Part shown: positions 17,619-39,340 of the stretch, one piece after another
How the letters are laid out: every line of letters starts with the position of its first letter
How positions within the stretch are numbered: the first letter of the stretch is position 1
Virus record (IMG/VR): IMGVR_UViG_3300042691_013609
Span: 1-64,000 of that record
From: a virus
Length of the DNA: 64,000 bases
Direction: 5' to 3' (one strand)
Made by a program: the position numbers and the translations under genes
Notes under the pieces: model-generated
Told to the model about the DNA's origin: nothing
The model's database searches: none
The model's input: only the letters and a program-made list of their open reading frames with translations

Positions 17619-19554
17619 AATAAAAAGCCAAGGGATCTACCAATCAGGTGGGCCCCTTGGCAACTTTTTTGGTCAAACAGGCATAACAGATCCAAGTTCT
17701 TATTTTAAATCATACGGGCAAGCTGGCGATGCTTATAAAGGAATTTTTGGAGATGTCCAAAGTTCTGGGATGTTTGCCACAAGAGCACCACTTCCAGAGT
17801 GGGGAGACCAAACTGCCGAACAATATAGGCAGAAAGTAATATCAAACATGAAGTTAAAGAAAGTTGGTGACAAATATGAAACACCAGACGGACAATCTTT
17901 AACTTATGATGAAATTACAGACTTAGCCGGAAAGCTTTACGATCAAACAAAAGAAACTAATAAATCTTTCAACGAGGGAGCTCCAATGGCAGCCCAAATG
18001 GCGGGTTTGTTAGATTTAGGAAGAAGAGAGCAGGATGAGTTAAAAAACAAAAAAGAGACTATACAAAATTACCCAGTAGTTAAATCTTCATTTGCCCCAT
18101 CAGGTTTTGCAGAACAAGGTGGCTACAACAATTTAGTTAGTTTATTTGTTAATGGAGGGCAGCAGGCTATGGGATATAAGGATAATAGCCCTTATAGAAA
18201 CATGCCTTCTCAAGAATTTTACACAGATACGTTAACCATGGATGGTGTTAGCCGACCAATAATGGCTGTACCAAATGTAGGAAAACCTGTTGTGATGGCC
18301 CCTAATGGTGGTAATTATTATTTCCCAGGTGCTTCCCAAATAACAGAAGTTCCAATGGCGAGAGAGGGCGGAAATATGTATAAAGAAGATATAGACCATG
18401 CAAAGTTTGGTGACTTCTTTAAAAAAGTAGGTAATGTAGTTAGTGATTATGGAAGAGGTATGGCTGATTCTTTTGGTAATATGACTGGGTTATACGATAT
18501 TGGAAACGAAGGTTACAAAACAAAGTTTGGAAGAAAAATAGCTGGAAGTGTAGACAAGTATTCAAGAGGTATTGGTAAAGTAGTAGATCTAGCTGCTACA
18601 ACTTTAGGAGGACCCCTTGGTGGTGCTATTGTAGGCACTAAGAACGCAGCAGGCAAAATGATTAATCCCCAAGGTTTAGGTGCCGCACAAGAGCAAAGAA
18701 ATGCCGAAAGAGCCGATATGTTAAGTTCTTTAGATCCAACAGGAAGAAATAAAGGTATGGCAGGATTATCTTCTTTATTAGGAGGTTCTGGAGGAGCTGG
18801 TGGACTTGGAGCATTAGGAGGACTCCTTGGAGGAGCAGGTGGTGGTTTAGGTGGTCTTCTTGGAGGAGCAGGTGGGGCTGGTGGAATGCTTGGGGGTTTA
18901 CTTGGTGGAGGTTTACCTTTTGGAGAACAAGGAGGTAGAGCTTCCTATAGTAACTTAGTTAATTTATTCCAAGAGGGTGGTGAGCCACAAATGCAAATGA
19001 CTGAGGAAGAAATGGCAGCTATGGGCGGAATCCAAGAAGGGAATAAATTCATGGAATTGCCAAAAGAACAACAAATAGAAGTATATAAATCTTTAATAGA
19101 TTTCATATTAGAAAATGGGATAGACGCTTTAGAGGAACAATATCCAGAAGAGTACGAGTTCTTTGATATATTTAATGATTTCATAGAGGAGGCCGGAAGA
19201 GAGGATAACGAAGAAAATGACGATCAGGAGGAGGATGATAATGAAGAAGAAGGAAGTACTGTACAAGGAATGGCTAATGGCGGAATACCACAAAGATATA
19301 AAAATCTAGGATTTACTAAAGTAGGACAAAAAAGGCAATCCACAAGACCTGGTAAAAAGTGGATGGTGTTGGCTAAAAAAGGAGACCAATATAAAGTAGT
19401 CCACGGAGGCGCAAAAGGAATGTCTGATTTTACAAAACATAAAAACTTAAAAAGAAGAAAAAGATTCTGGGATAGAATGGGCGGAACGAACTCGTCAAAA
19501 GCAACAGATCCGTTCTCACCTCTATACTGGCATAAAAGATTTGGAACCTGGTAA
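17596..19554 (+). CDS. putative internal virion protein with xxxGG repeats and a basic C-terminal DUF5754-like domain
   Basis: YQSGG/AEQGG/FVNGG/AREGG/FQEGG/MANGG; Gly-Leu tract; acidic tract; STRPGKKWMV...VHGG..GMSDFTKHK...SPLYW. Confidence 0.65.
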   Translation: MQARKLGKIKSQGIYQSGGPLGNFFGQTGITDPSSYFKSYGQAGDAYKGIFGDVQSSGMFATRAPLPEWGDQTAEQYRQKVISNMKLKKVGDKYETPDGQSLTYDEITDLAGKLYDQTKETNKSFNEGAPMAAQMAGLLDLGRREQDELKNKKETIQNYPVVKSSFAPSGFAEQGGYNNLVSLFVNGGQQAMGYKDNSPYRNMPSQEFYTDTLTMDGVSRPIMAVPNVGKPVVMAPNGGNYYFPGASQITEVPMAREGGNMYKEDIDHAKFGDFFKKVGNVVSDYGRGMADSFGNMTGLYDIGNEGYKTKFGRKIAGSVDKYSRGIGKVVDLAATTLGGPLGGAIVGTKNAAGKMINPQGLGAAQEQRNAERADMLSSLDPTGRNKGMAGLSSLLGGSGGAGGLGALGGLLGGAGGGLGGLLGGAGGAGGMLGGLLGGGLPFGEQGGRASYSNLVNLFQEGGEPQMQMTEEEMAAMGGIQEGNKFMELPKEQQIEVYKSLIDFILENGIDALEEQYPEEYEFFDIFNDFIEEAGREDNEENDDQEEDDNEEEGSTVQGMANGGIPQRYKNLGFTKVGQKRQSTRPGKKWMVLAKKGDQYKVVHGGAKGMSDFTKHKNLKRRKRFWDRMGGTNSSKATDPFSPLYWHKRFGTW

Positions 19555-22979: not shown

Positions 22980-24536
22980 ATGTTTGGGAATTCATTCTTA
23001 ACTAGTAAGTATTTAAAGAAATTGCAGCAAGGGGGTGGGATATCCATCCCCGACCCTGCTAGATTTAGAACTCCAATACAGGGGATTAATCCTTCTGTGT
23101 TCAATTATGATATTAACACAAAGCCACTTGATGTAAACCCTATGTTGCAGGTTATGCAAACTAAGGATAGTATGGATATGGCTAGGGAAAAGGCAGCCTT
23201 AGAAAGGGAAAAACTAAAAGCTCAAGCTGATTTAGAAAAAAGTAAATTACAGCACCAGCAGAATAAGATGATGATGGATTTCATGGGTGATATGTTTAAA
23301 GTTACTGGAGATGCCTCTATGAGTTCTGCGGGAACTCCACTTTACGCAGGAAATGACCTAACTACGTCAAAAAGATATGCACCTATTTACCAGCAATGGC
23401 AAACAAAGGAGTCAGAGATAGTAACCGATATAGCTAAGAGTATGTCTGCCCCAGTTGGTAGTACTCAAGCTAGCACTGTTATTATGAATAAAATGTTGGA
23501 ACTCCAAAGACACAGGCAGAATGCGCCTACAACAATGCAAATGGGTGCAGACCATAAAAGTATGGAAAATTTTTGGACTACTATGTCCGGAAATTCAAAA
23601 GATAAAAATAAAAAAATGAATGGCACTCTAGCTATGAGGGCCTTGAAACAAAGGGAAGAGTTTTTAAATGGTGTAGATAATGGTTACGAACTAGGCATGT
23701 CTGTCAATAATATACCTGGTTTAGTTTATGACAATGAATACGAGAGAAAGAAGTTAGACGATATTTACGCTCAAGTAAACAAACCTATCGAGCAAGAATT
23801 TATGGATTCAGGCGGTGGAGTTATAACTACTAAAAAAACTAAAAAAACATTAGACCCTAAGTTAGCATCTCAAGCTATTTTAGATAGAGTTTGGGGAGAT
23901 GCGAGCCAAAGATCTTATTTATCTGATTTATATGGAATGGATTTATGGGATGTAGATCAAAACAATGAAGCCAGAGTTAAAGAATTGTTAAGAGATAAAA
24001 TAGAGAAAACTATTCAGTACGATGATCAGTTATATGGTGGAGCTACTGGTGTAACTACAGATATATCAGCTCAAATACTTCCTACTAAAGATAAGACTGT
24101 CACTATGAATTATAATGTAGCTGGGGGTACTACAAAAAATATAAATAAAACTGTAACACCGTTAGATTCAGTTGAGCTGCCTAAGAATGTATCAACAAAT
24201 ACAGATGGATCTTATGACGTATCTGGAAATCCGGATACTCTTAAAAAGATAAAAGCTTATAGAGCTGCCAATAAGATTTCAAGTAACAATTATAAAAACG
24301 TTTCAGGAAAAGAATTAGCAGAAGCTCTATCTCCAGGAAGTACTGGCGGAACAACTGCTGCGCCTGCTGCACCAGGAACTTCTGGTTCAGCTACAGCTAA
24401 AACACCACAAGAACTAGCTAGAGAACAATTCCCTGGTATGTATAAACAGATGGAAGAAGTAGACAAGGGTGTAAAAACTGTCGAGACTAAGAAAAAGAAA
24501 GAAATACAAAATCTAAAAAATAAATACGGCTTATAA
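22980..24536 (+). CDS. putative internal virion protein
   Basis: 518 aa; N-terminal KKLQQGG; TAATG-coupled to the giant ORF. Confidence 0.6.
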   Translation: MFGNSFLTSKYLKKLQQGGGISIPDPARFRTPIQGINPSVFNYDINTKPLDVNPMLQVMQTKDSMDMAREKAALEREKLKAQADLEKSKLQHQQNKMMMDFMGDMFKVTGDASMSSAGTPLYAGNDLTTSKRYAPIYQQWQTKESEIVTDIAKSMSAPVGSTQASTVIMNKMLELQRHRQNAPTTMQMGADHKSMENFWTTMSGNSKDKNKKMNGTLAMRALKQREEFLNGVDNGYELGMSVNNIPGLVYDNEYERKKLDDIYAQVNKPIEQEFMDSGGGVITTKKTKKTLDPKLASQAILDRVWGDASQRSYLSDLYGMDLWDVDQNNEARVKELLRDKIEKTIQYDDQLYGGATGVTTDISAQILPTKDKTVTMNYNVAGGTTKNINKTVTPLDSVELPKNVSTNTDGSYDVSGNPDTLKKIKAYRAANKISSNNYKNVSGKELAEALSPGSTGGTTAAPAAPGTSGSATAKTPQELAREQFPGMYKQMEEVDKGVKTVETKKKKEIQNLKNKYGL

Positions 24537-27500
24537 TGAATGAAGATTTCTTAAAAGAGCTATATAATAGTTATGGTATATCTAAGAAAAACATCAGTTT
24601 TGATGAGTTTTCAAAAGATATGGCTAAACCTGATTTTCAAAAACTTTTTTACGATAGCAAAAAGTTTTCTGATAAAGGGATTTCTTTTGATGATTTTAAA
24701 TTAGATATTTCTAATAAAGAAAAACCAATATCTTTTAGTGTTGAGGGTACTAGAGAGGCAATGGCCAATGTTGATGAAGCTATTAAAAATGTAAAAGTAC
24801 CTACTAAACCTGTTTCAGAAACAGTAAAAGAGCAGAAGGGCACAGATGTGACCGGTATAAGGACTGATATAAATTGGGAACAAGGTACTACTAAAAATGT
24901 TATTGATCCTGAAAAAGCAAGAATAGAAGCAGCTAAAGTAGCAGCAGAAAAATCTAAGTCTACTGGAGAAATTATACCCGGATGGAAGAGGACTGTCGAT
25001 TTCACAACAGGTGAAGTTACTGATGTAGTAGACGAAGAGAGAAGAAGTGCCTATTTAAAGACCCAAGAAGAAATAAAGAAGGCACAAGAAGCTACGCAAC
25101 AACAATTTCAACCAGGATCTTATACTTATTTCCCAACAATCTCAGAACCAGATTTACCTGTTTACAATTTACAAAAAGCTTTAAAACCATATGAAGATGC
25201 TGTAGCTGAAGCTAATGGAGGTATTTTTCAGGACGCAAAATCTGCTTTTTATAAAGTTTTAGATATAACTAAACTGTCCAGCCCTTATGGGGGTAATATT
25301 TATAATCAGTACCAAATAGAACTTGCTGCGGATAGAAAAGAAAAATTACAAAAAGCTGAAGAACTAAGAGGTAAAATAATGTCTGAATTACCAGAGGAAG
25401 TAACAAATCCTTTGGATTTTGATTCTATATACCAATATGAAGCTAGTACGTCCACTACTAAAGAAGAAGCAGTCAATAAAACAAACGTCAAACTAAAAGA
25501 CCATTCAAATAGGTTACGTTTAGTCGAAGATTATAATTATAAAAAACTCACCCCTCAACAACAGCAAGTAGCCGACTTACTAAAAAAAGGAGAAGATGTG
25601 GACGTGTCTTCTTTAGAGGGTTCCCCAGAGTTTGATAAATGGATGAGATCCGCCGATAACGTAAGTAAACAAAAAGAATTAGTAAAAAATAATATAGACA
25701 AATATACAGGAGTACAGCAGTATATTGGTAATATTCTTGGCGAACTTAAAAATAAAAACTATGACGATGATGTTATAGAGTCTAGCTTGGTGAATTCATT
25801 AGAAACCCTAAGACAACAAAAACCAGAGTGGTCTGATGAAATTAATGATGCCCAAAACTTTATTAGAGAAAAAACTGTAACAGAAGGTGATGCTTTAAGT
25901 GCAGCTGCTTCATGGGGGTTTAATACAGCTAATAAAATAGGAGATACATTTGGGGCGATGCTTAAAGGTGTTAAATCCACTTTTTATACAGAAAGTACAA
26001 GGAATCTAACAAGAGGGGATGTAGATCAAGTCGTTAGGGATGAATTTGGGAAAGACCTTAGAGATATGTTAGTTGGGGCTTCCTCTAAATATAATGCGCC
26101 TATTAGTAGTAATGTTGTAGAAAAAGGAAATTTAAAACTTATAATCGAAGATGGTAAAGTAGTTGATATAAGAAGGAAAGATGATTCAAAAATATTCTTT
26201 CCAACTAAATATGAGTTACAAGTAGCAGAGTCTTATAATCCAAAAGTAGATGGAGAGGGTGAAGTAGATTATAACTGGAAGTCTATTGGTAATACTACAG
26301 GCCAAGTTATCACTGATATGATACCTATGATAGCAGCATCAATGGCTAGTGGTGGGGCTACTTTGCCAACTATGCTAGGGGCTATGTCAACTACATATGG
26401 TTCGTATTACAATGAAGCATTACAAAGAACAGGAGATATGAAACAAGCCACGTTATACGCGGCTATTACTTCTCCATTAATAGGGTATGTAGAGTCTAAA
26501 GTTGGTAATTTAGAGGGTAAATTAGGAAGAGCTTTAACTGGAGCAGAAAAAGGGGCTATTGAACGATTAGCTTTAGAAGTAGGTGAAGAAGTTTCTTCTA
26601 AAGGTATTAAAAATTACGTAGAAGGAAGAGGCGTTTTAACCTACTTAAAAGAAAAAGTAGCCAGATCGCCCGAATTAATTGGGGATATAAAAGGTGAATT
26701 ACTTGAAGAGTTCTCAAATTTCGGCACTGAAGCTGTTACAGCTGCCGCTACTGGTGTAGAAGGAGAACCTCTAACTATGGCTGAAGTAGAAGAAACAGCT
26801 ATTATTACTACTTTAGTTTCTGGTCTTATGGGCGGAGCCCGTATTATGGCGGACAACGCTAAAGAGATCAATGAAATGCTTGGTTATGCAGCTCTCAATC
26901 AAGATAAGTTTGAAGAGGCTGGAGTTAAATGGGTTGAAGCAGGGAGAACTGAAGAAGAGAAAGCAAAAAGAAGAAAAGACTTTGAAGCAAAAAGAGTATC
27001 AGTTACAGAAGTAAAAGATACTTTAAATTACGTAAACGAAAATAACTTTTCAGAAAAAGATAAAGATGAATTATTTAATTTATCTTTAGAGAAAGCTAAA
27101 CTTCTTTATAAGATGGCTTCTTCTGAAAGTGAGAAGACAAAAACTAATTTAGCTAAATCTATAGCCGAGATTGACAAGAGGATGGCGGGGTATACTCCAG
27201 GTGAAGGAGCTCCTGAAGCACCGCCTACACCTGAAGCCGCTATAGAAGAATCTAAAAAAGGATTTGTTACAGAAGAAGAGTTTAATACTTTAAAACAAAA
27301 CGGAAGAATACCTTCTGATGTTACTTTTGACCAGTTTAAAGAACTTCCTTTAAATAAACAACAAGAGTACAGACAACCAAAACCTACAGTAACCGAAGCC
27401 CAGCAAACAGAATTAGATAAAATAAATAAAAGAGCTACCTCTATCCAACAAAGATTGGATGAGGATAAGGCATTAGAGGATGAAGGTGAAGAACCTATAC

Positions 27501-30500
27501 TATCTAAAGAAGAAAGACAAAGACTAGAAACACAATTACAAACATTAAACCAACAAAGAGATGCCATTCAAAAGCAAAGCACAGCAGAGATATCTGTTCA
27601 GCCAGAACCCCAAACTGGCGAAGGAGTGGGCGGACAAGTACAACCAGAACCTCAAGTCACTCCCGGAGAAGGCCAAGTCGAAACCGAAGGCCAAGTCGAA
27701 GAGCAAGCTCAAGGGAAAATAGTAGATAAAAATTTTGATGAATCTCCTGACACTAAATCTTTTGTAGGTTCATATGTAGATTACCAAGGAGTGAGAGGTG
27801 TCTTGTTAGAAGATGGCCAAGGTAATATTATAGTGGACACTGGAGAGGGAGATGTCTTAGTTGAGGGGGCTTTGTCAGACATGACAAACAATGAATTAGG
27901 TCTCAGCAGAGCTGAAAGACCTGAAATAAATGAACAAGACATACAAAAAATAGAGCAAGATGTAACTGCTAATATAGATCCAACTGTTATACAAACAGAT
28001 TTCGGCACCGGTAGGGTATTTTACGGGGGTAAAGAATTTAAGTATGAGTCTACTAATCTAGATAAAGACGGAAATGCTGTATCTATAAGTATGACAGATG
28101 CTGATGGCAATAAGAAGACCATACGTAATAAACAAGCGGTTGAAGAAATAGAACTTCAAAAAATGATTTTTGAAGACTTACTAAACAATAATAAAATAAC
28201 ATTAGACAATGAGTTCGCAAAACAATTCCAAGCCCAAGCAACAGACCTTGGGATCAAACCCACGATTACAGCTCCCCAAAGAGGTCAGAGACGTGTTGAA
28301 CCAGTACAGCAAGGAAGACCAACTGAAAGTGTTAAAGGCGATGAAACAAAACCAGAATTTGTAAAAAGAACTCCTGGGGTCATAAAAGGTTTTGAGGTAA
28401 AGAAAAAAGACGGAACAACTTTACCTCCATCTAATTATACAAAAGATTCAAAGACTGGCAAATGGAGGAGGATAAATGAGACAGGCAAGCCTACAGCAGT
28501 AAATACTCAGCAAATGATTCAGCAATTGGAAGCTGAGGAAAAAAGATTAACAAAAGAAGAACAAAAAGCTATAGCTGAGGCCAAAAAAAGAATACCTGTT
28601 GAGATAAAAGGATTTGAAGTAAAGAAAGCCAATGGTACAACTGTGCCAGCCTCTGATTACGTAAAAGACCCTAACACCGGAAAGTGGAAAAGGATAAATG
28701 AACAAGGTAAACCTATAGCTGTATCCAGCCAACCAATGATAAAACAATTGGAGGCGGAAGAAAAAAGATTAGCACAAGAAGAACAAATGGCTGCCGAACA
28801 AAAGGCAAAGCCAAAGGCGGAGCCTACGCCAGCCACACAGCCGGCAAAAGCAGCTCCAGTTATAACAGTAAAAGCACCTGCAATAGAAGTTACGCCACAA
28901 CCAGAAGCTAAAGGGGAGGGGGTAGAAAAAACTGCACAAAAGGCAGAAACGAAACCAGAAACCGCTACTACGAAACCTACACCAGAAGCCAAAACTCCAG
29001 AACCCGCTGCTGCAACAGAAACACCTACACCAGAAGCTCCTCCTAAACCGCAAGGCAAGGTTGGGGCTAACGGCGTTCCACAAATATTTTTCTCTATGCC
29101 TGGCGTTAAAGCGGTAGGGTTTGATATTTTTGGGAAGTTTTATAATGTTGTATCAAACTCATTTAGACCAAAGATAATGGTGGATATAAACGGAACAATT
29201 ATTCCATTTTATATGACTACTGGATTTGGCGGAAAGAGTACACCTCCTGGATGGTATCCAATTTGGGGTTTTGGGGAAGACGGTTGGTTTAATAAAACCG
29301 TGGATTCAGAGATTATGGATTTCTATTCTAAGTATATTGGAAGGGAAAATGCGGACTTGTTAAAATCTATCGCAGATGAGTTAAATAATTTCTATGGAGT
29401 AGATCCTTTTTTTATTTCTATCGATTATGATAGAGATTCTAATTTACCTAAAGTAGAAGCTGAGGAGAAATTTGAAAAAGAAGTTAATAAGCTTGTAAAT
29501 TCTAAGTTACCTATCAAACCAATACTCCAAAAATCTGGAGACATAAAGACATTAAGTAAAAATATAAAAACACTTGGAGATAATTTATCTAAGAGTGTAG
29601 AAGGTATTAAGAAACAACAGCAAGAAGAGAAAGCTAGGCAAGAGGCACAAAGAAAAGCCGAAGAGCAGAAAAGAGTTGAAGAGCAGAGAAAGGCGGAGGA
29701 ACAGAAAAAAGCTGAAGCTGAAAGACAAAAAGCTGCCGAAGAAAAAGCTAAAAAAGAAGCAGAAAAACCTGCTCCAAAGAAAGAAGAGCCTGCTAAAAAA
29801 GCAGTAGAAGAAGAAGTAGATTTAGAAGAGCCAGCTACAGAAGAAGAGATTGCTGCTTTTGAAGAAGAGATGAAGATGCTTGAATCTGAATTAGCTGAAG
29901 CTTTGGCAAAAGGTTTCCAGGATGGTTTTAGTGTTAGTAATAAATCACAAATAGCTGCGGCTGAATCAGTAACTACTACAAAGGAAAATAAAGATACTGT
30001 ATTAGCTTCAAAAAGATTAATACGGGTATTGAAGTCTGTATTCCCTAATATGGATATTTTCTTACATACAGACGAAGAGTCCTACAATAGGAAAATGGAA
30101 GAACTTGGGGGAAGACCTGATTCTGGTGGTAATTTCTTTTACGCTAAAAGCCCAGATGGCAAAGTAACTAGGGGGCGGATAGATATAAATCTTAATTCGG
30201 CCAGCCCAGTTACTGTAGCGCACGAAGTATCCCACGCTATCTTATTAAAGACTTTTGGGGATAACCCTGTTTTATTTAAAAAATTCCGGGACAATATTGG
30301 AAAAATCTTATTAAATGAAGCTAATCAAAAATTAATAGTTAGAGATAGATACGGAAGATCAGTAAGCTGGGCTAGTGCGTTAGATAGTTTTGAAGCTATG
30401 TATAAAGGCCAAGAAGTGGCCCCTGAAGAATACTTAGTACAATTAACTGCATTCTTATCTGAGAGTGGTAACGCGTTAACGATAGCTAGAAAAGCACCTT

Positions 30501-33500
30501 CTATCTTAGAAAAGATAGTTAGGACTATAAACAGTTTAATATCTACAGCTACTAATGGTAAGTTTTCTCCATTTAAAAATTTTAAGGCTTCAGAACAAGA
30601 ACAATTAGAAAATTTAGTTGATTTCTTTAATTCAATTGGTAAGACTTTATCCACAGGAGGAGAAATAACAGCCGACCAGATTGCGGAAGCAGCAACTCTT
30701 AATGATCTTTTATATCCAAAGGGGGACTATATAGGAAATAAATCTTCTGTTTTTGTACCGAATTCCGGCGGGCCTGGCATAGTAGAGAATGTAGATGCGG
30801 ATGCTTTGGCAATTATGAATTCTTATGAGTTTTTAAATAAAGCTTTAGATTTAGATAAAAAGAATACAGTAGATATTGATATCGATGTTGATGAATTAAA
30901 TAGCAGACTTGATACTCCGCTTAAAAAAGTAAAGTGGAGTGACTTCAAAGGTATGCCATTTATATTTACTATATCAGACCAATTAACTACAGGAGACGTT
31001 ACTAACCCAATTACAAATAAAGTTATAGATAACTTAAAGGGGGGATTAGGTTTTAATGGCACAAATGGAAATACTAATAGTGCCTGGGCCAATATGGGTG
31101 ATGTAGAGGCCACCAATACGATTGACAAAGCCACCACCATTTACGAGAATAATAAAGAATTATTCCAAAAACTATGGAAGGACGGATCACTCCCTAATGG
31201 CCATATCCCTATGGCAGTTGTAAAAATGGGGGAAGCATCTATTACTTCAAATGAAGCTGTTTTCAGGGTAGGTCTTGAAAATATAAAAACATTGCCGTTA
31301 GAAAATAGGCAAAAAGCTGTTAAGGTTCTAAAAGAAAGCCTTAATGAAAAAATAAATACTTTAAAAGAAGATATAGCTCGTGGTGTTTCTAAAGATAAAA
31401 AACCTAAAGTCTATTCAGACAATACTATAGATGGTAAGAAGAAGAAGATAAGTGCATATAATGAAATATTAAAAAAGATAAACCAAAATAAATACACTGA
31501 TATTGCGGATATCATAAAAAATATTTCTAAATTCTCTTTACCTCAAAGAGTTCTAATAGGAGGTGAAGTCTTTTTTGGATCGAGTCCTACTAAGCCAGGG
31601 GCGAAACCGGTTAAACCTAATAAACCAGATACGCCAGTAACTTTGGCTTTACTTGGTGACAATAACCCAGCCCTTCTTCATATTGGACCTATTACTGATT
31701 TGATCACAGAAAAAGCTATAAAAGATGTACCATCAAATCATGTGATAGCTGTAGTAGGTGTTGATGTCCTAAACCCAGAGATAACCACAACAACGCATCC
31801 AAACTATGAGAAAGGAGTTAAGGGTGTGTCTATTGGTGTTTTAGATAAACCAATACACATGCTAGATGCTTTTGGGGAAGCTTATGGGAATGCTATGGCA
31901 TTAGCTGCTAAAAAGGAGGCAGAAAAATCTGAAACAGATACTAAAGCCCTTATATCTCAAGCAGTCCCTGTCCAGGCTGGTCTGCCTAATGCAGTTTTAA
32001 AAGGGGCAGTAGCTACGAATAAGGTAGATGCAATAGATAAGTTAAACGGATTTTTAAGACAGGCTTTCCCAACCACTAGCTTCTTTACTACACAAGAGGC
32101 TTGGGATGCTGTTATGGAGAATGGATCGATAGACAAGAAGTCTGTTGATGGTAATGTCCTTTATGGGTTTACTGCTAATGGGAATGTTTATATCAACCCA
32201 GATATAAAAACAGCTAAAGCTCCTTTACACGAAGTAGGACACTTATGGGTTAATTTTGTTAAGGATACAAACCCGGCTCTTTATGAGAAAGGATTGGCAT
32301 TAACAGAAGGTACTGCCGAGTTAGCCACAGAGATGGAAAAATATGGGGACACAAATCTAGCTAGAGAAGAAGCTTTAGTTAAATTGATGTCTACCAAAGG
32401 TGAGACCATTGTAAATACAGCCCAGAAGGCTGAGTTTAAAGAATGGTTGTTATCTATGTGGAAGTATGTGAAGGATAATTTTAAATCTTTATTAGATATT
32501 CCAGCCGACCAAGTTGAAGACATTACTTTAGACCAGTTCTTAAAGGGGATGTTGGCAGATGTACTTGGTGGAAAAGAGTTAGTTCCGCCTAAAAAAGCTA
32601 AAAAAACTAAAGGTACTAAAGAGATTACAGTAAATAAATCTTCGAGGGAAGATGTTAAGAAGGCTATAGAAGATATTGCTTTAGTTGATAAAGACATAGT
32701 GGCTAATGCGGCTTCAAAAGTGTTTAAAGATCCTGGTTACCATAGGGGCATTTTAGGTAAAAAATCAGATTTCACCGATAGATCTTATCATGGTGAGATG
32801 CCTTATACTGGATATTATTTTGTATCCGACCCTAAAGAAGTTGTTCTAGGTCAATCTAGATGGGGAGACCCAAGGGCTTTTAGAATTGTAGATTTTTCTA
32901 AATATAACTTAGTTAAATTCACTGGGGCGGAAGAATATTTTTCTTTAAAAATAGCTTTGAAGAGTTTAGCGGTAGATCTGTTAAGAGGTGAGATTAAAAT
33001 TGAGGAGGCGTTAAAAAATTTCCTTGAAAAACCATATACCTCTTTACCTAATTCTGTAGTAAGAGCTATACGAGATTACGATGGTAACAAACTTCAAAAA
33101 CAAGATCTTTCAAGAGAGAAGTTTCAATTAGAAGAAAGATTAAACACAGTTCGTAGTAATAAAGAGTTTGATGAGATAAGCAATAGAATAAACGAGATAA
33201 ATTCGGAAATATCTAAGATAGGTAAAAAACCATTTAGCGAGGCTTTGGGTGGTGTATTAGATGAATACGAAAAGCAAAGAAGTGCCCCACAAAAATCAGA
33301 AGAAGATCCTCCAGGAAGGGCTGAAAGGCTAGAAACTTTAATACTAAAAGAGTTAGGTTTTGAGGGTATAGATGCCAGACGTGTAAAAGCTGAGAATGGG
33401 CTAAAATCTCCAGATGATTTTTCACATGGGTCTACTATATTTGATTTAAAGCCTGGTACTGCCACATCATTACATGATGCTTATGTAGATGCTAAAGAGA

Positions 33501-36500
33501 ATAACACTAACCCAGAGCTAGTACAAGCTATGGATGATATGTTAGACCAAGAACGTGAAATAATTGTAAATAAATCCTCTAAAATACCCGGACCCGCTAG
33601 AATTGATAGGGAACTTCCAACTCCAAATAAAGAAAGAATTACAAATGCAACTGAGAATTTGCAGAAAAAATTCAGAAGGGATGGGGTTCGTTTAACCGAA
33701 AAAGAGGGAATGGAGATAGTTAAAGAATTATCTTCTTGGAAAGATTGGTATGAAGGTATAGCAGCTAAAGTGCAAGAAGCTTTTGGTGAATACTCTGCTG
33801 ATTACATGATGTTTATGTTTGGATCCGCTGTAGCTGCGAATAGCGCATCTACTATTGGCACATCTTTAAATAATCTGCAAAGATTATATGAAGGACAAGA
33901 TATAAAAGGTTTGCCTATAATGAAAAGAAATATTTATGAAATTCTTTCTAACTTGCCTGTCACAAGTGATAAGATAAGAAACTTCATAGCCGCCGGATTA
34001 GGCGATAAAAACGCCATACCTGTAGATATGCATGTTTGGAGTTTTATAAATTCATTTCCTACTTTAAAAACACCAAGTAAAAAAAATTTTGAAAAAGCTA
34101 AAGAGTTTGTTAGAAGTATTGCAGATGGTCTTAAATGGGACCCAAGAGAAGTGCAAGCAGCTATGTGGGCAGCTAACATGCTTAGATTAGGATTAGAACC
34201 AGACACTTATGAAGAATACATCCAAAGAAAAGTTGAGCGAGGACTCAAAGATCAGATCCAAAAATGGCGCGAAAAAGGTTATAAGCCAATTTTTGAAGTT
34301 CGTGAAGTCGGAGGGAAGTTAGAAACTTCCTTTATAGACGAAGTTAAGATTGACGCTTTGCAAAAATTAGAAGAGACTAATAGAAAAATAAGTAATAAAA
34401 AAGAAGAAATTACAGTAAGTAAATCTTCAAAAACCCAAAAGACAAAATTTGATCCTAGGGATAGAGGCCAAATGCTGGAAGACGAGTTCCTTAAAACAAA
34501 GGAAACTCTTATAAAAATGATCAGCGCCAGCTATAGAAATTCCATTAGTAAGGGTAAGAAATTTACCGAAGAAGACTTCAAGAAAATCCTAGATAAGTTT
34601 AATATTTCTATAGATGATAGTGGCATAGAGTTGTTGTTTAAGAGGGCTGTTAGATATAACTCTTATCCTAGAACAATCCAAAGAATTATTCTTACCCCTT
34701 CCATCCCCGACAATGTTAAAGATGCTTTATTAGATAACGCTAAACCAAAAGAAGTTATTACTGATGAGCACGTTGAAATCTTAGCAGATGCAATAGTAGC
34801 ACCAGGAAGGGAGGCAGAAACTAATGAAGAAGCAGTAGAAATCTTTGATAACTTACAAAAAGATTTGATTGATTCTTTAGCCAGGGAGTTAACAAACATA
34901 AGAGATGGGGCCCAGAGCCAGATTACTTACGAGATTAGGGCGTTGAAGAAAATTGCCCAAAGTCTTATTGAGATGGGAGATGTGAAGAGATCCGCAGATG
35001 TACTGGCGAAGATTACTTCTTTAGGTTCTTTATTTGGTAAGGAGCTTAGGGAGATTGGTTTGAACTCAATGGATGCAGTTTATATTGTCCACTTATCTAG
35101 GGAATCCGATGAGAATAGAGAAGAAGTTTTAAATGCCCCGGCTAAAGGGTATGAAAAAACAACTAATAGAGAAAGGATCGATAGCCAAAACAAAGCAGCA
35201 GAAGAAGCTTTAAAAGAAGGTGTTAGCGAAAGAAAAAAAGAAACGGCTAAAAAAGTACAAGAGAAATACGATAAGAGGACTAGTACAGAGAAAGTAAAAG
35301 AGGCTACCGAAGAAAGAGAGACTGCGCATGCTGCCGAAAAGAAAAAAGGACTTTTTGATAAGATAGTTGGGTCAGTTAAAGATTTCTTTGGTGTTAGCAA
35401 ATCTTCTTTAAATAAAAAGAATCCTCTTGCAGATACAGCCGGGAAAACTATTCCAGCAGCCCAGTTGGCACAGGTTGCCAAGGACTATTTTATGTATGCC
35501 TTTTATAACAATAATGGTAACACACAAAAAGCCCGCGAAGAATTTTTAAGTAAAAAAGAATTAAAAGGGGCGCACGGAGACATAGACCAGATCATAGGCA
35601 GTTTAGTTAGTGATGGTACATTGGATACGGCTACAAGAGAATTAGCCCAAGCCAAGATATTAGAAGCTCTACAGGAAGTACAAACTCCAAGCAATGTAAG
35701 AAAGCTTAGTCCTGCGCAATTAATTGCCATGAGGGTAAAAGCAATTGATAAGAGAAATGAAAAGGCTAAACCTAAAAGGAAAACTTTAGAACAAAAGATC
35801 GCAGAGAATGATGTAGATATAGAAACATTAACTGAACTTAGGAATGCTATTAATGCTGAATTAATGCAGTTGCCGGCCAATAAGAAAGAAGAAGTATTGG
35901 CAAGGGTAGATGATATTTTAGTTAACCTAAGAGCCGAAAAATTAAAGAATAGGGCTACACCATGGATAACTAAAGCTAAGATTAGGGAAGACTTCAAAAG
36001 AGGTTTATCTTCTTTAGGAGAAACTGTTGAAGACCTAATGGATGATCTATCTAAAATAGATGTCTATACTAATTCTATTGCCCAGGAGTTTATACAAAGA
36101 ACAGGTATGACTGCCGAAGAGGCAGCGCCATTCGTAAAGATTATAGAAGATGAAATTAAAAACATAGTAGATACTAAGGTCAAAGCTGCTTTAGAAAAAG
36201 AATACTTAGATTCTTTACAAGGAAACAGAGACGACTTAGTTAATGCTGCCGAAGAGTACGCCCAAAAAGCTTCAGATTTTGAAGCAGAAGCAGATAAACT
36301 ACGTAATAAAACTAAGACACCTGAAGAAGTTGAAAGGTTAAAGACAGCACAAAGAGAAGCAGCAAGATACAAAAAACTTGCAGCTAGAGCTAAGTCAAGG
36401 TTAAAAACATTTGACGAAAAAGCTGCCAAGCGTTTAAAAAGTGGAGATTTCTACCAGATTTTAAAGACTATTACGCAAGGTGGATTAACACAAGAAACCG

Positions 36501-39340
36501 TAGTAAATGCTTTAGCTAATTCTTTAAGAGTAGAGGTAATCTCTAAAGAGCAACTAAACCATATTGAGATTCTATCTGAAAAGATAAGGAATGCAACTAT
36601 GGCTAAGAATTCTGTGGACGAGGAAAAAGCTATAACTGAATTAAAGAAATACCTATACGGAATAAGTAATGTATCTTTCTTAGATATTTTTAAACGTATG
36701 TGGGAATCTTTTATGTACGGTAATATGCTTTCTAGCCCACGAACAGCAGAGGTTGCTTTCTTTTCTGGTACGATAGGTTTAATTAGAGATGTTATTGCAA
36801 ATTTCTTCCAAGCTTTAGCTGTAGATATATTAAATTTTTCACCTATTACCATAGGCAAGGATGGGATTAAAACAAGACGAGTAAAACCTGATTTTAGAAA
36901 TTTAAGAACATTAGGTAATGCATTATTAGATATAGTTGGTAGTAATAATATTTTTTCTTTTTCTACATTCTTTGAGGTATTAAAAGGTGCCGAAGGTATT
37001 TCTATACAGCAGATGGATGTCTCTGGTAAGACTAAAGATAGATTATCTAATTCTTTAGCTGAAATAGATAAGGCGGATGTTGCTATAGATAGGATAAAAC
37101 AAGATCCTAATTGGAAAATAAAGCCTAATAAAATAGCTGCTGTAGGAGCTTTAGAGGCTTTCAAATTACAACAAAGGATAGCTAGATTACTTGTTGCTAT
37201 GGACTATGCCGCTAGAAGTGCAGCCATACCTTACGCAATAAGAATGACCACTGCCCAAATAGCTACGGAGTCTTTGCCGATTAGTGCTACCTATAAAGAT
37301 ATTTATAATAAGACAAATGAAATTATAAATAGAGGTGAAGCAAAAGCAATAGCAGAAGCGAAAGCAGCCGAGATGGCAGCATTAGGTAAGAACTTTGATG
37401 AGAAAAGGTATGAGAAGAAAGTAGCTACAAGTGAGGCTGTATTACCAGCCGAGGTGCAAAGAAGAGTTAAAGAGTATGCAGATAGATTAGCCTGGACGGG
37501 TAGAATATTTGGTTACTCGGGTTGGATGGCCAACAAGTTAAATGGGGCGTTTGAAAAATTTAATGGAGAACCTATTTTACCAAATGACTCACTCCCAACT
37601 ACTTTAAGAAAATTAGCTATACAAATACCTCTTACCGCAGTTAAAATGGTGGCAATACCATTCCCAGGAGTATTATTTAGAGGTATGCAGTCTGTAAAAA
37701 ATGCTACTATTTTAGGTCTTTTCCAGAGGAAAGTCGTAAAAGGACTTGACGGGAAATACACCCAAGGAAAAGGATGGCCGTTGCAATTCTTTAAAGAACA
37801 TAGATTATATAATAGTGCAGGAAATGTAGATGAAGTAATCAAAGCTTCTAACTGGGAAGTAGCATCGAGAATAGCTTGGTCAACTGTCCCATCTGTAATG
37901 GCTTGGGCTTTATTTCAAGCTATGTTTACTTTTGATTTTGAAGACGATGAAGAAGAAAAAGAGTACAATGAGATGGGTTATTTTAATCCTCTTAAATTTG
38001 GTGCATTTTTTGAAAATGGAGCTACTATTAAGCTAAAATCTGATAGCGATTGGTTAATTACTGGAGAGTATGATTCTGATATGGAGGCAGTATTCAGAGG
38101 TAAAGGTTTACAGTATTTCCCTAATGCCATTTACTATAAAGGTAAGAAACTTCCTATTGTTGGTGGGTATAAAGATATGCCTTGGGGTATATTCTTTTCC
38201 GGGCTGGCGGCAGTGCAAGAAAGAGAACTTTATGCAGAAAAAGTAAAAGGGTCAAGTGATGCTACCAGAGATCCTTTAACTACTAGTGATGTCTTTAAAA
38301 TTATGGCGCTAAGTGGTGTAGGATTCCTTAGTGAATTTGGTTTGACTGGAGCTTTAGAACAACTATCCTTTATTACTGGAATATTTTCAGGAGAAGTTGA
38401 TGACAAAGTTTTCCAAAAAGCACAAAAAAATTTAGTAAGAACAAACATACCTGCTGTTGGTTTCGCCACTTGGTCAGCTAATCTCAAAGGAATGTACAAA
38501 GATGATGACAAAAGAAAAGGCATAGGTGTATTATCCGGAGCTATGGCGAATGCCTATGTGTTTGACGACTTCATTGATACATACGACTTCGACGCTTTAG
38601 GTAAAAGAATACCTTACCAAGAAAGTCCTTATCCTATTTTAGGCTCTGTTGAAAGGGCTGTGGCTTCTATAAATAATTCTAATTATTCTTTATTAACTAA
38701 TTCAACTTTTAAAGACCGCCAAACTAAAGCAGATATAATTAGATCTAAATACTCAGACTTCGCTACCTTAATTAGAAAGCAAAGCCCGAAAGATGTCTTA
38801 AAGAGTGAGAGAACTATTGTGGAGACTTTTGACGATCAGTCTAATTATGATATGGCCTTAGCTGCCGCTACCTCAAAAGGAGAAATGTTGGATACGTACT
38901 ATGAATACTTAGATGGATTAGAGAGAGGAGACTTCTCTAAAAGGCTTAGAGAAATAAACAATATAGGAAACGATCACGCCTTCTGTTCTAAAGTCTTAAC
39001 TGTATTAGAAAATAATGCCGATAAGATAATGAATGAAACAGGACTTTCCATCCAAGATATTGTCTCTAAAATAGGAATTAGACCAAAGAGTAAAATTGGA
39101 TTAACTAATGTGCAGGATAAAAACAGCAAAGGAGAATTCAAATATGATGCCAATGGAAATCCTGTAATGGTACCTGGATACTTTAAAAGATCAAAGCTAG
39201 TAGAATTGCTTTATGAATATGACATAAAAGTTACTAGCGATGGCCAATTAAAATTCAACCAAAAATACCAAGATACTTACGACAGGGAAGAGTTTGAGGA
39301 TTATATGAATTCACAAGCTGGAGATGTAGAGTCAGAGTAA
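24536..39340 (+). CDS. giant polyvalent (ejected) virion protein with two zincin metallopeptidase domains, an ART-like domain and an HhH-glycosylase-like domain
   Basis: 4934 aa; HEVSH (30221) and HEVGH (32228); GYHRG...GYYF...GFEGI (32730-33450); WY...PVDMHVW...WDPREVQAAMW (33740-34200); last gene of the virion block. Confidence 0.75.
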   Translation: MNEDFLKELYNSYGISKKNISFDEFSKDMAKPDFQKLFYDSKKFSDKGISFDDFKLDISNKEKPISFSVEGTREAMANVDEAIKNVKVPTKPVSETVKEQKGTDVTGIRTDINWEQGTTKNVIDPEKARIEAAKVAAEKSKSTGEIIPGWKRTVDFTTGEVTDVVDEERRSAYLKTQEEIKKAQEATQQQFQPGSYTYFPTISEPDLPVYNLQKALKPYEDAVAEANGGIFQDAKSAFYKVLDITKLSSPYGGNIYNQYQIELAADRKEKLQKAEELRGKIMSELPEEVTNPLDFDSIYQYEASTSTTKEEAVNKTNVKLKDHSNRLRLVEDYNYKKLTPQQQQVADLLKKGEDVDVSSLEGSPEFDKWMRSADNVSKQKELVKNNIDKYTGVQQYIGNILGELKNKNYDDDVIESSLVNSLETLRQQKPEWSDEINDAQNFIREKTVTEGDALSAAASWGFNTANKIGDTFGAMLKGVKSTFYTESTRNLTRGDVDQVVRDEFGKDLRDMLVGASSKYNAPISSNVVEKGNLKLIIEDGKVVDIRRKDDSKIFFPTKYELQVAESYNPKVDGEGEVDYNWKSIGNTTGQVITDMIPMIAASMASGGATLPTMLGAMSTTYGSYYNEALQRTGDMKQATLYAAITSPLIGYVESKVGNLEGKLGRALTGAEKGAIERLALEVGEEVSSKGIKNYVEGRGVLTYLKEKVARSPELIGDIKGELLEEFSNFGTEAVTAAATGVEGEPLTMAEVEETAIITTLVSGLMGGARIMADNAKEINEMLGYAALNQDKFEEAGVKWVEAGRTEEEKAKRRKDFEAKRVSVTEVKDTLNYVNENNFSEKDKDELFNLSLEKAKLLYKMASSESEKTKTNLAKSIAEIDKRMAGYTPGEGAPEAPPTPEAAIEESKKGFVTEEEFNTLKQNGRIPSDVTFDQFKELPLNKQQEYRQPKPTVTEAQQTELDKINKRATSIQQRLDEDKALEDEGEEPILSKEERQRLETQLQTLNQQRDAIQKQSTAEISVQPEPQTGEGVGGQVQPEPQVTPGEGQVETEGQVEEQAQGKIVDKNFDESPDTKSFVGSYVDYQGVRGVLLEDGQGNIIVDTGEGDVLVEGALSDMTNNELGLSRAERPEINEQDIQKIEQDVTANIDPTVIQTDFGTGRVFYGGKEFKYESTNLDKDGNAVSISMTDADGNKKTIRNKQAVEEIELQKMIFEDLLNNNKITLDNEFAKQFQAQATDLGIKPTITAPQRGQRRVEPVQQGRPTESVKGDETKPEFVKRTPGVIKGFEVKKKDGTTLPPSNYTKDSKTGKWRRINETGKPTAVNTQQMIQQLEAEEKRLTKEEQKAIAEAKKRIPVEIKGFEVKKANGTTVPASDYVKDPNTGKWKRINEQGKPIAVSSQPMIKQLEAEEKRLAQEEQMAAEQKAKPKAEPTPATQPAKAAPVITVKAPAIEVTPQPEAKGEGVEKTAQKAETKPETATTKPTPEAKTPEPAAATETPTPEAPPKPQGKVGANGVPQIFFSMPGVKAVGFDIFGKFYNVVSNSFRPKIMVDINGTIIPFYMTTGFGGKSTPPGWYPIWGFGEDGWFNKTVDSEIMDFYSKYIGRENADLLKSIADELNNFYGVDPFFISIDYDRDSNLPKVEAEEKFEKEVNKLVNSKLPIKPILQKSGDIKTLSKNIKTLGDNLSKSVEGIKKQQQEEKARQEAQRKAEEQKRVEEQRKAEEQKKAEAERQKAAEEKAKKEAEKPAPKKEEPAKKAVEEEVDLEEPATEEEIAAFEEEMKMLESELAEALAKGFQDGFSVSNKSQIAAAESVTTTKENKDTVLASKRLIRVLKSVFPNMDIFLHTDEESYNRKMEELGGRPDSGGNFFYAKSPDGKVTRGRIDINLNSASPVTVAHEVSHAILLKTFGDNPVLFKKFRDNIGKILLNEANQKLIVRDRYGRSVSWASALDSFEAMYKGQEVAPEEYLVQLTAFLSESGNALTIARKAPSILEKIVRTINSLISTATNGKFSPFKNFKASEQEQLENLVDFFNSIGKTLSTGGEITADQIAEAATLNDLLYPKGDYIGNKSSVFVPNSGGPGIVENVDADALAIMNSYEFLNKALDLDKKNTVDIDIDVDELNSRLDTPLKKVKWSDFKGMPFIFTISDQLTTGDVTNPITNKVIDNLKGGLGFNGTNGNTNSAWANMGDVEATNTIDKATTIYENNKELFQKLWKDGSLPNGHIPMAVVKMGEASITSNEAVFRVGLENIKTLPLENRQKAVKVLKESLNEKINTLKEDIARGVSKDKKPKVYSDNTIDGKKKKISAYNEILKKINQNKYTDIADIIKNISKFSLPQRVLIGGEVFFGSSPTKPGAKPVKPNKPDTPVTLALLGDNNPALLHIGPITDLITEKAIKDVPSNHVIAVVGVDVLNPEITTTTHPNYEKGVKGVSIGVLDKPIHMLDAFGEAYGNAMALAAKKEAEKSETDTKALISQAVPVQAGLPNAVLKGAVATNKVDAIDKLNGFLRQAFPTTSFFTTQEAWDAVMENGSIDKKSVDGNVLYGFTANGNVYINPDIKTAKAPLHEVGHLWVNFVKDTNPALYEKGLALTEGTAELATEMEKYGDTNLAREEALVKLMSTKGETIVNTAQKAEFKEWLLSMWKYVKDNFKSLLDIPADQVEDITLDQFLKGMLADVLGGKELVPPKKAKKTKGTKEITVNKSSREDVKKAIEDIALVDKDIVANAASKVFKDPGYHRGILGKKSDFTDRSYHGEMPYTGYYFVSDPKEVVLGQSRWGDPRAFRIVDFSKYNLVKFTGAEEYFSLKIALKSLAVDLLRGEIKIEEALKNFLEKPYTSLPNSVVRAIRDYDGNKLQKQDLSREKFQLEERLNTVRSNKEFDEISNRINEINSEISKIGKKPFSEALGGVLDEYEKQRSAPQKSEEDPPGRAERLETLILKELGFEGIDARRVKAENGLKSPDDFSHGSTIFDLKPGTATSLHDAYVDAKENNTNPELVQAMDDMLDQEREIIVNKSSKIPGPARIDRELPTPNKERITNATENLQKKFRRDGVRLTEKEGMEIVKELSSWKDWYEGIAAKVQEAFGEYSADYMMFMFGSAVAANSASTIGTSLNNLQRLYEGQDIKGLPIMKRNIYEILSNLPVTSDKIRNFIAAGLGDKNAIPVDMHVWSFINSFPTLKTPSKKNFEKAKEFVRSIADGLKWDPREVQAAMWAANMLRLGLEPDTYEEYIQRKVERGLKDQIQKWREKGYKPIFEVREVGGKLETSFIDEVKIDALQKLEETNRKISNKKEEITVSKSSKTQKTKFDPRDRGQMLEDEFLKTKETLIKMISASYRNSISKGKKFTEEDFKKILDKFNISIDDSGIELLFKRAVRYNSYPRTIQRIILTPSIPDNVKDALLDNAKPKEVITDEHVEILADAIVAPGREAETNEEAVEIFDNLQKDLIDSLARELTNIRDGAQSQITYEIRALKKIAQSLIEMGDVKRSADVLAKITSLGSLFGKELREIGLNSMDAVYIVHLSRESDENREEVLNAPAKGYEKTTNRERIDSQNKAAEEALKEGVSERKKETAKKVQEKYDKRTSTEKVKEATEERETAHAAEKKKGLFDKIVGSVKDFFGVSKSSLNKKNPLADTAGKTIPAAQLAQVAKDYFMYAFYNNNGNTQKAREEFLSKKELKGAHGDIDQIIGSLVSDGTLDTATRELAQAKILEALQEVQTPSNVRKLSPAQLIAMRVKAIDKRNEKAKPKRKTLEQKIAENDVDIETLTELRNAINAELMQLPANKKEEVLARVDDILVNLRAEKLKNRATPWITKAKIREDFKRGLSSLGETVEDLMDDLSKIDVYTNSIAQEFIQRTGMTAEEAAPFVKIIEDEIKNIVDTKVKAALEKEYLDSLQGNRDDLVNAAEEYAQKASDFEAEADKLRNKTKTPEEVERLKTAQREAARYKKLAARAKSRLKTFDEKAAKRLKSGDFYQILKTITQGGLTQETVVNALANSLRVEVISKEQLNHIEILSEKIRNATMAKNSVDEEKAITELKKYLYGISNVSFLDIFKRMWESFMYGNMLSSPRTAEVAFFSGTIGLIRDVIANFFQALAVDILNFSPITIGKDGIKTRRVKPDFRNLRTLGNALLDIVGSNNIFSFSTFFEVLKGAEGISIQQMDVSGKTKDRLSNSLAEIDKADVAIDRIKQDPNWKIKPNKIAAVGALEAFKLQQRIARLLVAMDYAARSAAIPYAIRMTTAQIATESLPISATYKDIYNKTNEIINRGEAKAIAEAKAAEMAALGKNFDEKRYEKKVATSEAVLPAEVQRRVKEYADRLAWTGRIFGYSGWMANKLNGAFEKFNGEPILPNDSLPTTLRKLAIQIPLTAVKMVAIPFPGVLFRGMQSVKNATILGLFQRKVVKGLDGKYTQGKGWPLQFFKEHRLYNSAGNVDEVIKASNWEVASRIAWSTVPSVMAWALFQAMFTFDFEDDEEEKEYNEMGYFNPLKFGAFFENGATIKLKSDSDWLITGEYDSDMEAVFRGKGLQYFPNAIYYKGKKLPIVGGYKDMPWGIFFSGLAAVQERELYAEKVKGSSDATRDPLTTSDVFKIMALSGVGFLSEFGLTGALEQLSFITGIFSGEVDDKVFQKAQKNLVRTNIPAVGFATWSANLKGMYKDDDKRKGIGVLSGAMANAYVFDDFIDTYDFDALGKRIPYQESPYPILGSVERAVASINNSNYSLLTNSTFKDRQTKADIIRSKYSDFATLIRKQSPKDVLKSERTIVETFDDQSNYDMALAAATSKGEMLDTYYEYLDGLERGDFSKRLREINNIGNDHAFCSKVLTVLENNADKIMNETGLSIQDIVSKIGIRPKSKIGLTNVQDKNSKGEFKYDANGNPVMVPGYFKRSKLVELLYEYDIKVTSDGQLKFNQKYQDTYDREEFEDYMNSQAGDVESE
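27561..27722 (+). CDS. nested +1-frame small basic protein (53 aa, MPFKSKAQQRYLFSQNPKLAKEWADKY...)
   Basis: ATG after A-rich ACATTAAACCAACAAAGAG, open to TAG 27720-22; resembles the small MPFKS phage proteins I recall; host frame here is a low-complexity linker. Confidence 0.65.
   Translation: MPFKSKAQQRYLFSQNPKLAKEWADKYNQNLKSLPEKAKSKPKAKSKSKLKGK
28209..28364 (+). CDS. nested +1-frame small protein (51 aa, MSSQNNSKPK...LKAMKQNQNL)
   Basis: ATG after A-rich AATAATAAAATAACATTAGACA; amphipathic helical core LPKEVRDVLNQYSKEDQLKVLKAM. Confidence 0.45.
   Translation: MSSQNNSKPKQQTLGSNPRLQLPKEVRDVLNQYSKEDQLKVLKAMKQNQNL
28370..28800 (+). repeat. tandem 74-aa domain duplication inside the giant protein
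   Basis: IKGFEVKK.GTT.P.S.Y.KD..TGKW.RINE.GKP.AV..Q.MI.QLEAEEKRL occurs twice, 222 nt apart. Confidence 0.9.
34209..34322 (+). CDS. possible nested +1-frame peptide (37 aa, MKNTSKEKLSED...)
   Basis: Open ATG-TAG frame starting right after the glycosylase-like domain; short, could be chance. Confidence 0.3.
   Translation: MKNTSKEKLSEDSKIRSKNGAKKVISQFLKFVKSEGS

Follow-up and report, generated by a model that had tools for sequence, protein, structure and literature searches.

Why should a single viral protein carry nearly the same short peptide at every junction between its domains? The question is raised by the virus record IMGVR_UViG_3300042691_013609 of IMG/VR, one contig of 121,238 bp whose first 64 kb (64,000 nucleotides, here called the window) were analysed, and within it by a giant open reading frame (ORF), P0001. 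An initial annotation of the window had picked out six strings in the encoded protein, had suggested that they bracket its domains, and had read them either as the signal at which one ejected polyprotein is cleaved into separate effectors or as a microhomology for the swapping of modules; motif statistics against the proteome and predicted domain boundaries were named as checks. All six strings are found at exactly the positions given. We conclude that the motif is very probably a real and selected junction signal, and we favour, with moderate confidence, the reading that the six sites are candidate cleavage sites read by a zincin-like peptidase built into the protein itself. The ORF and its sites, with positions counted from the first letter of the window, are as follows.

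24536-39340, + strand: giant ORF P0001, open for 4934 amino acids, the final gene of the + strand block of virion genes
29933-29950, + strand, amino acids 1800-1805: site 1, VSNKSQ, at the N-terminal flank of module C
30731-30748, + strand, amino acids 2066-2071: site 2, IGNKSS, at the junction of modules C and D
32621-32644, + strand, amino acids 2696-2703: site 3, EITVNKSS, at the junction of modules D and E, 17 residues past the conserved end of module D
33557-33580, + strand, amino acids 3008-3015: site 4, EIIVNKSS, at the junction of modules E and F
34406-34429, + strand, amino acids 3291-3298: site 5, EITVSKSS, at the junction of modules F and G
35387-35407, + strand, amino acids 3618-3624: site 6, FGVSKSS, at the junction of modules G and H

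Written in general form the junction peptide is phi-x-[NS]-K-S-[SQ], and six of the six junctions carry one copy. The giant protein has five KSS tripeptides, every one of which lies within the motif. From the amino acid composition 0.21 copies of [NS]KSS would be expected and five are seen (Poisson P for five or more = 2.9e-6), V[NS]KSS is seen four times against 0.013 expected (P = 1.1e-9), and the longer EI[IT]V[NS]KSS three times against 9e-6 expected; these composition tests are post hoc, as the motif was picked after inspection, but they pass by a wide margin, and the family-wide tests described further down are independent of that choice. The rest of the 121,238-bp genome, searched in stop-to-stop frames of at least 100 amino acids, holds just three [NS]KS[SQ], none of them in a V or E context. 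The codons vary among the copies (GTA AAT AAA TCT TCG, GTA AAT AAA TCC TCT, GTA AGT AAA TCT TCA and GTT AGC AAA TCT TCT), which means that the repeat is maintained as a peptide and is not the trace of a recent duplication of DNA. De novo scans for 4-mer and 7-mer repeats were swamped by the low-complexity linkers. When the proteins with module C were compared with all proteins fetched (BLAST), five of the six sites were found to lie no more than 6 residues from a homology breakpoint, and the sixth is without an informative relative.

For the comparison with other phages the protein was cut at the motifs and the pieces were searched against 164 relatives; with 43 more giants that contain module C the relatives number about 200 overall. 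The pieces are an N-terminal block and six modules, C to H.

24536-29932, + strand: N-terminal block of about 1800 amino acids, without a copy of the motif
29951-30730, + strand: module C, 'peptidase 1', with HEVSH at 30221-30235 and EE at 30425-30430
30749-32620, + strand: module D, about 430 amino acids without a known fold and 'peptidase 2' (HEVGH at 32228-32242, EE at 32366-32371)
32645-33556, + strand: module E, which also exists as a stand-alone protein of 300 amino acids, P0031
33581-34405, + strand: module F, Pfam DUF7178, all-helical
34430-35386, + strand: module G, with one relative found, P0053
35408-39337, + strand: module H, the C-terminal part of about 1310 amino acids, without an internal copy of the motif

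Relatives align with the modules almost from end to end (C 9-254 of 266 residues, D 17-628 of 632, E 6-306 of 312, F 8-280 of 283, G 5-301 of 326 and H 23-1297 of 1314), and in P0053 the homology to G stops at residue 301 of 326 and that to H begins at residue 23 of 1314. The order of the modules varies, F preceding D in P0007 and P0008, and P0031, which consists of module E alone, starts 12 residues and ends 8 residues before the two motif positions and lacks the motif at both ends. Judged from these alignments, the motif-bounded segments are whole evolutionary units that are shuffled, lost or stand alone in relatives, and the suggestion that the motifs bracket domains has held. Here, then, several separable domains share one phage polypeptide, since modules C-H occur elsewhere in other orders or alone, and this is a feature of polyvalent proteins. 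Some of the relatives fetched match Pfam PF18760 and PF18838, which we take to be polyvalent-protein families.

A protein of 1411 amino acids, P0168, matches amino acids 3616-4934 of the giant ORF product at 100% identity. The 92 residues with which it starts correspond to the N-terminal end of another phage protein of about 263 amino acids, unrelated and very common (at least 595 matches in viral contigs), and the switch from one to the other is in a shared D-F-F five residues ahead of site 6 (window positions 35372-35407, amino acids 3613-3624). P0168 is either a chimeric assembly or a genuine recombinant at the module border.

Against 50,697 phage records tblastn gave only three distant ones, and a scan of viral contigs with amino acids 2068-3721 gave none in the first pass. 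No homologue of the N-terminal 1800 amino acids or so was found among the proteins fetched, and the other members of the P0001 cluster are 99.8-100% identical and therefore say nothing about conservation of the motif. Searches of Pfam-A (hmmscan) and PHROGs with all eight segments returned no significant family, barring a weak DUF7178 and phrog_3842 match on module F; within the family of module F, seven of eight members match DUF7178 in Pfam. Searched as profiles against PDB sequences, modules D, E and F gave nothing meaningful. Module E had been called ART-like (ADP-ribosyltransferase-like), a label that we could not uphold, as there is no Pfam match, no PDB profile match below E 0.5 and no usable match in the ESM Atlas. 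Of the name 'glycosylase-like' for module F a weak structural likeness is left, Foldseek listing 8-oxoguanine glycosylases of the helix-hairpin-helix (HhH) type at E 0.13-0.5 with template modelling (TM) scores of 0.29-0.51 and a probability of up to 0.99; by sequence the module is a DUF7178 protein.

The domain boundaries were also looked at in structure models. An AlphaFold (AF2) model of amino acids 2040-2730, 691 residues with a mean pLDDT (predicted local distance difference test) of 84.3, has a confident core at amino acids 2084-2685, and in a model of amino acids 2990-3330, with a mean pLDDT of 79.0, the core spans model residues 46-268. Site 2 is inside the stretch 11-44 of the module-D model, where pLDDT is below 50, and site 3 adjoins another such stretch; in the module-F model a stretch with pLDDT below 50 (21-45) begins at site 4, and a low-confidence helix with pLDDT 54-60 ends at site 5. 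The four sites modelled, 2-5, are thus all predicted to be in low-confidence stretches beside confident cores. A complex prediction of the module-D core with a 36-residue peptide of the E/F junction scored 0.00, which is evidence neither way.

An early view that the motif is private to this phage (in its literal form it is absent from the first 17 relatives searched) was overturned once relatives of module C were fetched. P0025, a relative with part of module C, has phi-x-S-K-S-Q five times, and two of the copies bracket its module F. At the N-terminal flank of module C the relatives have G-V-S-[IV]-T-N-K-S-x where the giant protein has G-F-S-V-S-N-K-S-Q, and at the C-terminal flank they have F-T-S-R-S-S-L, I-K-S-K-S-S-I and similar peptides. 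The common core, [NS][KR]S[SQA], was found 109 times in 48 giants with module C against 34.5 times in shuffled sequences, a 3.2-fold excess, whereas 107 giants without module C have 48 matches against 58.1 shuffled and show no enrichment (Mann-Whitney P 1.3e-15 for core counts with and without module C). It is present at the N-terminal flank of module C in 31 of 48 proteins and at the C-terminal flank in 15 of 48, to be compared with 60 of 1440 random windows, and there are three to five core copies per protein. The median distance from a core match to a homology breakpoint is 4.5 amino acids, against 30 amino acids for random positions (P 5e-24), and 0 of 114 core matches fall within recognised module cores (binomial P 2.5e-4). 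The motifs are thus placed where modules meet and outside the folded domains, as the annotation had supposed.

The peptide is conserved among relatives that are 35-43% identical, and each clade keeps its own form of it at all sites: SRSQ in a cluster of 18, only K (39 of 39) in a cluster of 9, SKSQ in all five copies of P0025, and NKSS or SKSS in the giant protein. By these comparisons V-N/S-K-S-S is the local version of a junction signal shared across the family, [NS]-[KR]-S-[SQA], that is tied to the module-C domain.

Two relatives with module F in which modules C and D were not detected, P0009 and P0010, have a junction peptide of their own, G-Q-[PAL]-S-[LV]-x-I-D-R-S, in two and four copies respectively, one of them directly after module F. 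This is either another dialect or another system.

What could read such a signal? The giant protein has exactly two HExxH strings, HEVSH in module C and HEVGH in module D, which agrees with the two peptidases of the initial annotation. H1896, E1897, H1900 and E1965 of module C are invariant in 46 of 46 distinct relatives, and H2565, E2566, H2569 and E2612 of module D in 31 of 31 sequences. Both modules thus show the HExxH with a downstream Glu that is the mark of zincins of the gluzincin kind, and the Glu would presumably act as the third zinc ligand. An alignment of module C with the last 190 residues of module D by hhalign has a probability of 96.3% (E 1.7e-9, 183 columns), from which it follows that the two zincin-like domains of the protein are paralogues. 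At E<=0.001 none of 31 relatives of module D matches a peptidase family, the curated MPTase family of polyvalent proteins included. A search among proteins of 171-545 amino acids found only one homologue of module C, a contig fragment, so that this domain appears to occur within giant fusions.

We prefer self-processing as the explanation because the peptide is present at every seam, in linkers that appear exposed, because it flanks a peptidase-like domain and is avoided inside domains, and because it shifts in step across the sites of a lineage and is not the same for the two paralogous types of peptidase. A single motif that marks each junction, flanks a putative protease and is missing from the domain cores is the arrangement of a self-processing viral polyprotein. 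The giant protein would then be a phage polyprotein of the 'polyvalent' kind, made up of the N-terminal block of about 1800 amino acids and the six modules C, D, E, F, G and H, with a candidate site peptide in a short exposed linker at each junction. The module-C peptidase would first release itself by cleavage at the two sites that flank it, and once free it would cut the remaining four sites in trans. About seven proteins would result, of about 200 kDa, 30, 70, 35, 32, 37 and 148 kDa, and this could take place inside the virus particle or in the host once the protein has been ejected.

The second peptidase type has a flanking motif of its own. An expectation-maximisation (EM) search of the linkers that follow module D in 77 relatives gave [VAPT]-[KRA]-F-S-[KLA]-E, 9-16 residues past the conserved end of D, and site 3 of the giant protein, 17 residues past that end, occupies the equivalent place. 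At the N-terminal flank of D, which had no part in the training, 14 of 29 cases have the motif, where random windows have it in 3%, and at the flanks of E or F it is present in 0-1 cases each. In relatives the D paralogue thus carries a different flanking motif, so that the type of motif follows the type of peptidase. When the giant protein is scored for the D-type motif the best value, 6.8, is inside module E, and the six sites score from -5.9 to 2.0. As to how the two types match residue by residue, K may correspond to F, or K/R to K/R and S to F. It is possible, and we offer it as a tentative idea, that the domains and motifs are matched protease and site pairs, the C type reading [NS]-[KR]-S-[SQ] and the D type [VA]-[KR]-F-S-K, that the codes drift in step in each lineage, and that the C-type code has replaced the D-type code in this phage, even beside module D, with one protease releasing all modules.

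Several points weigh against self-processing. Of the cleavage signal proposed in the annotation, the placement at junctions and the co-occurrence of the motif with the HExxH domain of module C stand; the cutting itself, which of the two peptidases performs it, at which bond and when, are things that we infer. The relatives that contain module C form 14 clusters at 60% identity, four of which have one core match or none, and the association therefore comes from few independent lineages. Away from the training sites, the excess of the D-type motif is only weakly different in proteins that contain module D and in those that do not (P 0.066), and the giant protein has both peptidase types yet only the C-type motif. 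No Pfam peptidase family is matched at E<=1 in the eight segments, the best in module D being DUF4932 at E 0.026. Foldseek and VIA-align with the 691-residue module-D model gave no zincin match, in a kind of search where single domains in long models can be missed; the VIA-align list has mostly helical hairpins with Z<8. Finally, the virion RNA polymerase of phage N4, which has an MPTase domain, is reported to be packaged unprocessed (Iyer et al. 2017, PMC5512222).

That polymerase would be a precedent for the alternative that we weigh most seriously, even if we hold it to be unlikely: the motif could be a conserved junction signal that is bound and left uncut, and that orders or tethers the modules of an intact giant protein during packing or tail passage. 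Its partners, on an equally doubtful footing, would be the peptidase-like domains, a packaging or ejection partner, or neighbouring modules that hold a short strand. The placement, the selection and the link to the HExxH domain are as compatible with binding of the signal as with its cleavage, and the phi-x-phi ahead of N/S-K-S-S is strand-like. The invariance of the HExxH...E set in both modules points instead to catalysis, the motifs are modelled as disordered and not as packed onto a domain, and P0031, standing alone with the motif at neither end, indicates that the modules do not need it.

It is rather improbable, in our opinion, that the sites are cut by a different protease, from the host or from elsewhere in the phage, with the HExxH domains acting on the cell wall or the proteins of the host. 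Such roles have been considered for similar domains, as the zincin-like domain of phi14:2 gp65 may digest peptidoglycan (Drobysheva et al., bioRxiv 10.1101/2020.03.07.982082) and MPTase domains are possibly effectors (Iyer et al., PMC5512222). An outside enzyme does not, however, predict that the motif type tracks the built-in peptidase type across relatives, the motif is unused in the other large proteins of the genome (the three matches there are at chance level), and no other protease family was found among the proteins of the virion block that were scanned.

The second reading in the annotation, that the motif is a DNA microhomology which promotes swaps of module cassettes between phages and that the peptide is a by-product, fares badly, and we think it very improbable. 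Modules are indeed shuffled among relatives, and P0168 switches to 100% identity with module H just ahead of site 6, but the join is in the shared D-F-F outside the motif and may be that of a chimera. The copies differ at synonymous positions and share at most 9 to 12 bases, and the peptide is retained in relatives as distant as stated above. That the recurrence is a product of chance or of low-complexity composition, as might be suspected in a protein rich in K (10.3%) and S (6.0%) with a motif selected after looking, is a negligible explanation next to the counts and expectations given above, those of the eight-residue form included, and to the enrichment of the same core in independent relatives.

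The genome is crAss-like, judged by the family of a tail ring protein: a CrAss_Ring_1 domain (PF24228) is encoded at 11572-12543, on the same strand and in the same block as the giant ORF, at a Pfam E of 1.2e-22, above the curated cut-off. We infer solely from this context that the giant protein may be ejected, as the annotation had called it. The protein was considered as the virion RNA polymerase of Crassvirales and was not assigned as such, because it has no DFDxD and no match to a solved structure: the looser pattern D[FYW..]DxD is found only as DYDRD (amino acid 1630) and DIDID (amino acid 2113), and phmmer with the whole protein against PDB sequences gave 0 matches at E<=0.1. A hydropathy scan of the giant protein found no membrane-like segments. 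The virion RNA polymerase expected of a crAss-like genome was not located in the giant ORF or in two very large neighbours in the same block, the ORFs at 2259-7442 (1727 amino acids) and 12549-17618 (1689 amino acids), both on the + strand, in which neither a Pfam family, nor a PDB sequence match, nor the junction motif was found.

The DYDRD string at 29423-29437 (amino acids 1630-1634) belongs to a small domain of about 140 residues with a low-complexity linker on either side; the string is reminiscent of the DxDxD metal sites in polymerases, but a crAss-type RNA polymerase would need a far larger domain. Also in the N-terminal block, at 28382-28825 (about amino acids 1283-1430), are two tandem units of about 74 residues between low-complexity linkers, which start with IKGFEVKK..GTT.P.S.Y.KD..TGKW.RINE.GKP.AV and end with QLEAEEKRL. 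Elsewhere in the virion block, the product of the ORF at 8896-10170 (+ strand, 424 amino acids) matches phrog_704 at E 6.8e-72, a family annotated as 'DNA repair exonuclease'; this label looks misplaced in a virion block, and may be wrong for the family. The ORF at 17596-19554 (+ strand), upstream of the giant gene, matches Pfam DUF5754 with its C-terminal 70 residues (E 6.4e-11) and phrog_220, 'minor head protein and DNA pilot' (E 6.9e-7), and may encode another ejected protein.

The value of the locus is that it offers six exact candidate sites and one named putative catalytic residue in each peptidase domain, E1897 and E2566, together with a comparative rule, the type of motif going with the type of peptidase, from which the enzyme for each site can be predicted. 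If the sites are cut, one could locate from sequence where the modules meet in thousands of giant phage proteins that lack annotation, and pairs of peptidase and site could become orthogonal processing tools. If the paired-code idea is also true, DNA phages would possess a cleavage code open to rewriting, a counterpart to the codes of RNA-virus polyproteins. Should the protein stay intact, the motif would still mark a conserved linker signal.

Of known systems the polyvalent proteins are the most alike, each being a giant polypeptide of many separable modules that include HExxH domains, and zincin-like peptidases have been proposed to process them (Iyer et al. 2017, PMC5512222). The available text of that paper gives no cleavage-site motif, whereas exact candidate sites are at hand here. 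The giant protein differs further in having two paralogous peptidase types, each type with its own flanking motif, and no match to the Pfam MPTase family. The cargo and RNA polymerase block of Crassvirales (gp65-gp66-gp67 of phi14:2, gp45-gp50 of crAss001) is similar in that a giant gene ends the virion block and that there is a zincin-like domain. A fused crAss-like 'huge polyprotein' has been said to be one that 'is likely cleaved' (Drobysheva et al., bioRxiv 10.1101/2020.03.07.982082), and Bayfield et al. 2023 (PMC10172136) list the cargo proteins gp45-gp50 of crAss001 in a paper whose full text does not contain the terms protease, cleav- or proteoly-. The giant ORF differs from this block in having neither DFDxD nor a match to a solved structure, and the accessible text of those papers names no cut sites. 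The idea of self-processing was thus already in print in 2017-2020 (PMC5512222; bioRxiv 10.1101/2020.03.07.982082), and what appears to be new, as far as the text of these sources goes, is a junction code that can be read. In the literature searched we found no publication that names a junction or cleavage motif for polyvalent or crAss-like cargo proteins.

In the polyproteins of RNA viruses the protease is flanked by its own sites, a short degenerate peptide is present at each junction, this peptide is avoided inside domains, and lineages have their specific dialects. The giant protein resembles them in having the same peptide at every junction and beside a putative flanking protease, in avoiding it in the domains and in its lineage dialects. 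It differs in that it is encoded by a DNA phage, that the product is probably packed in the virion and that the enzyme is metallopeptidase-like, and the likeness is hence one of shared logic and not of descent.

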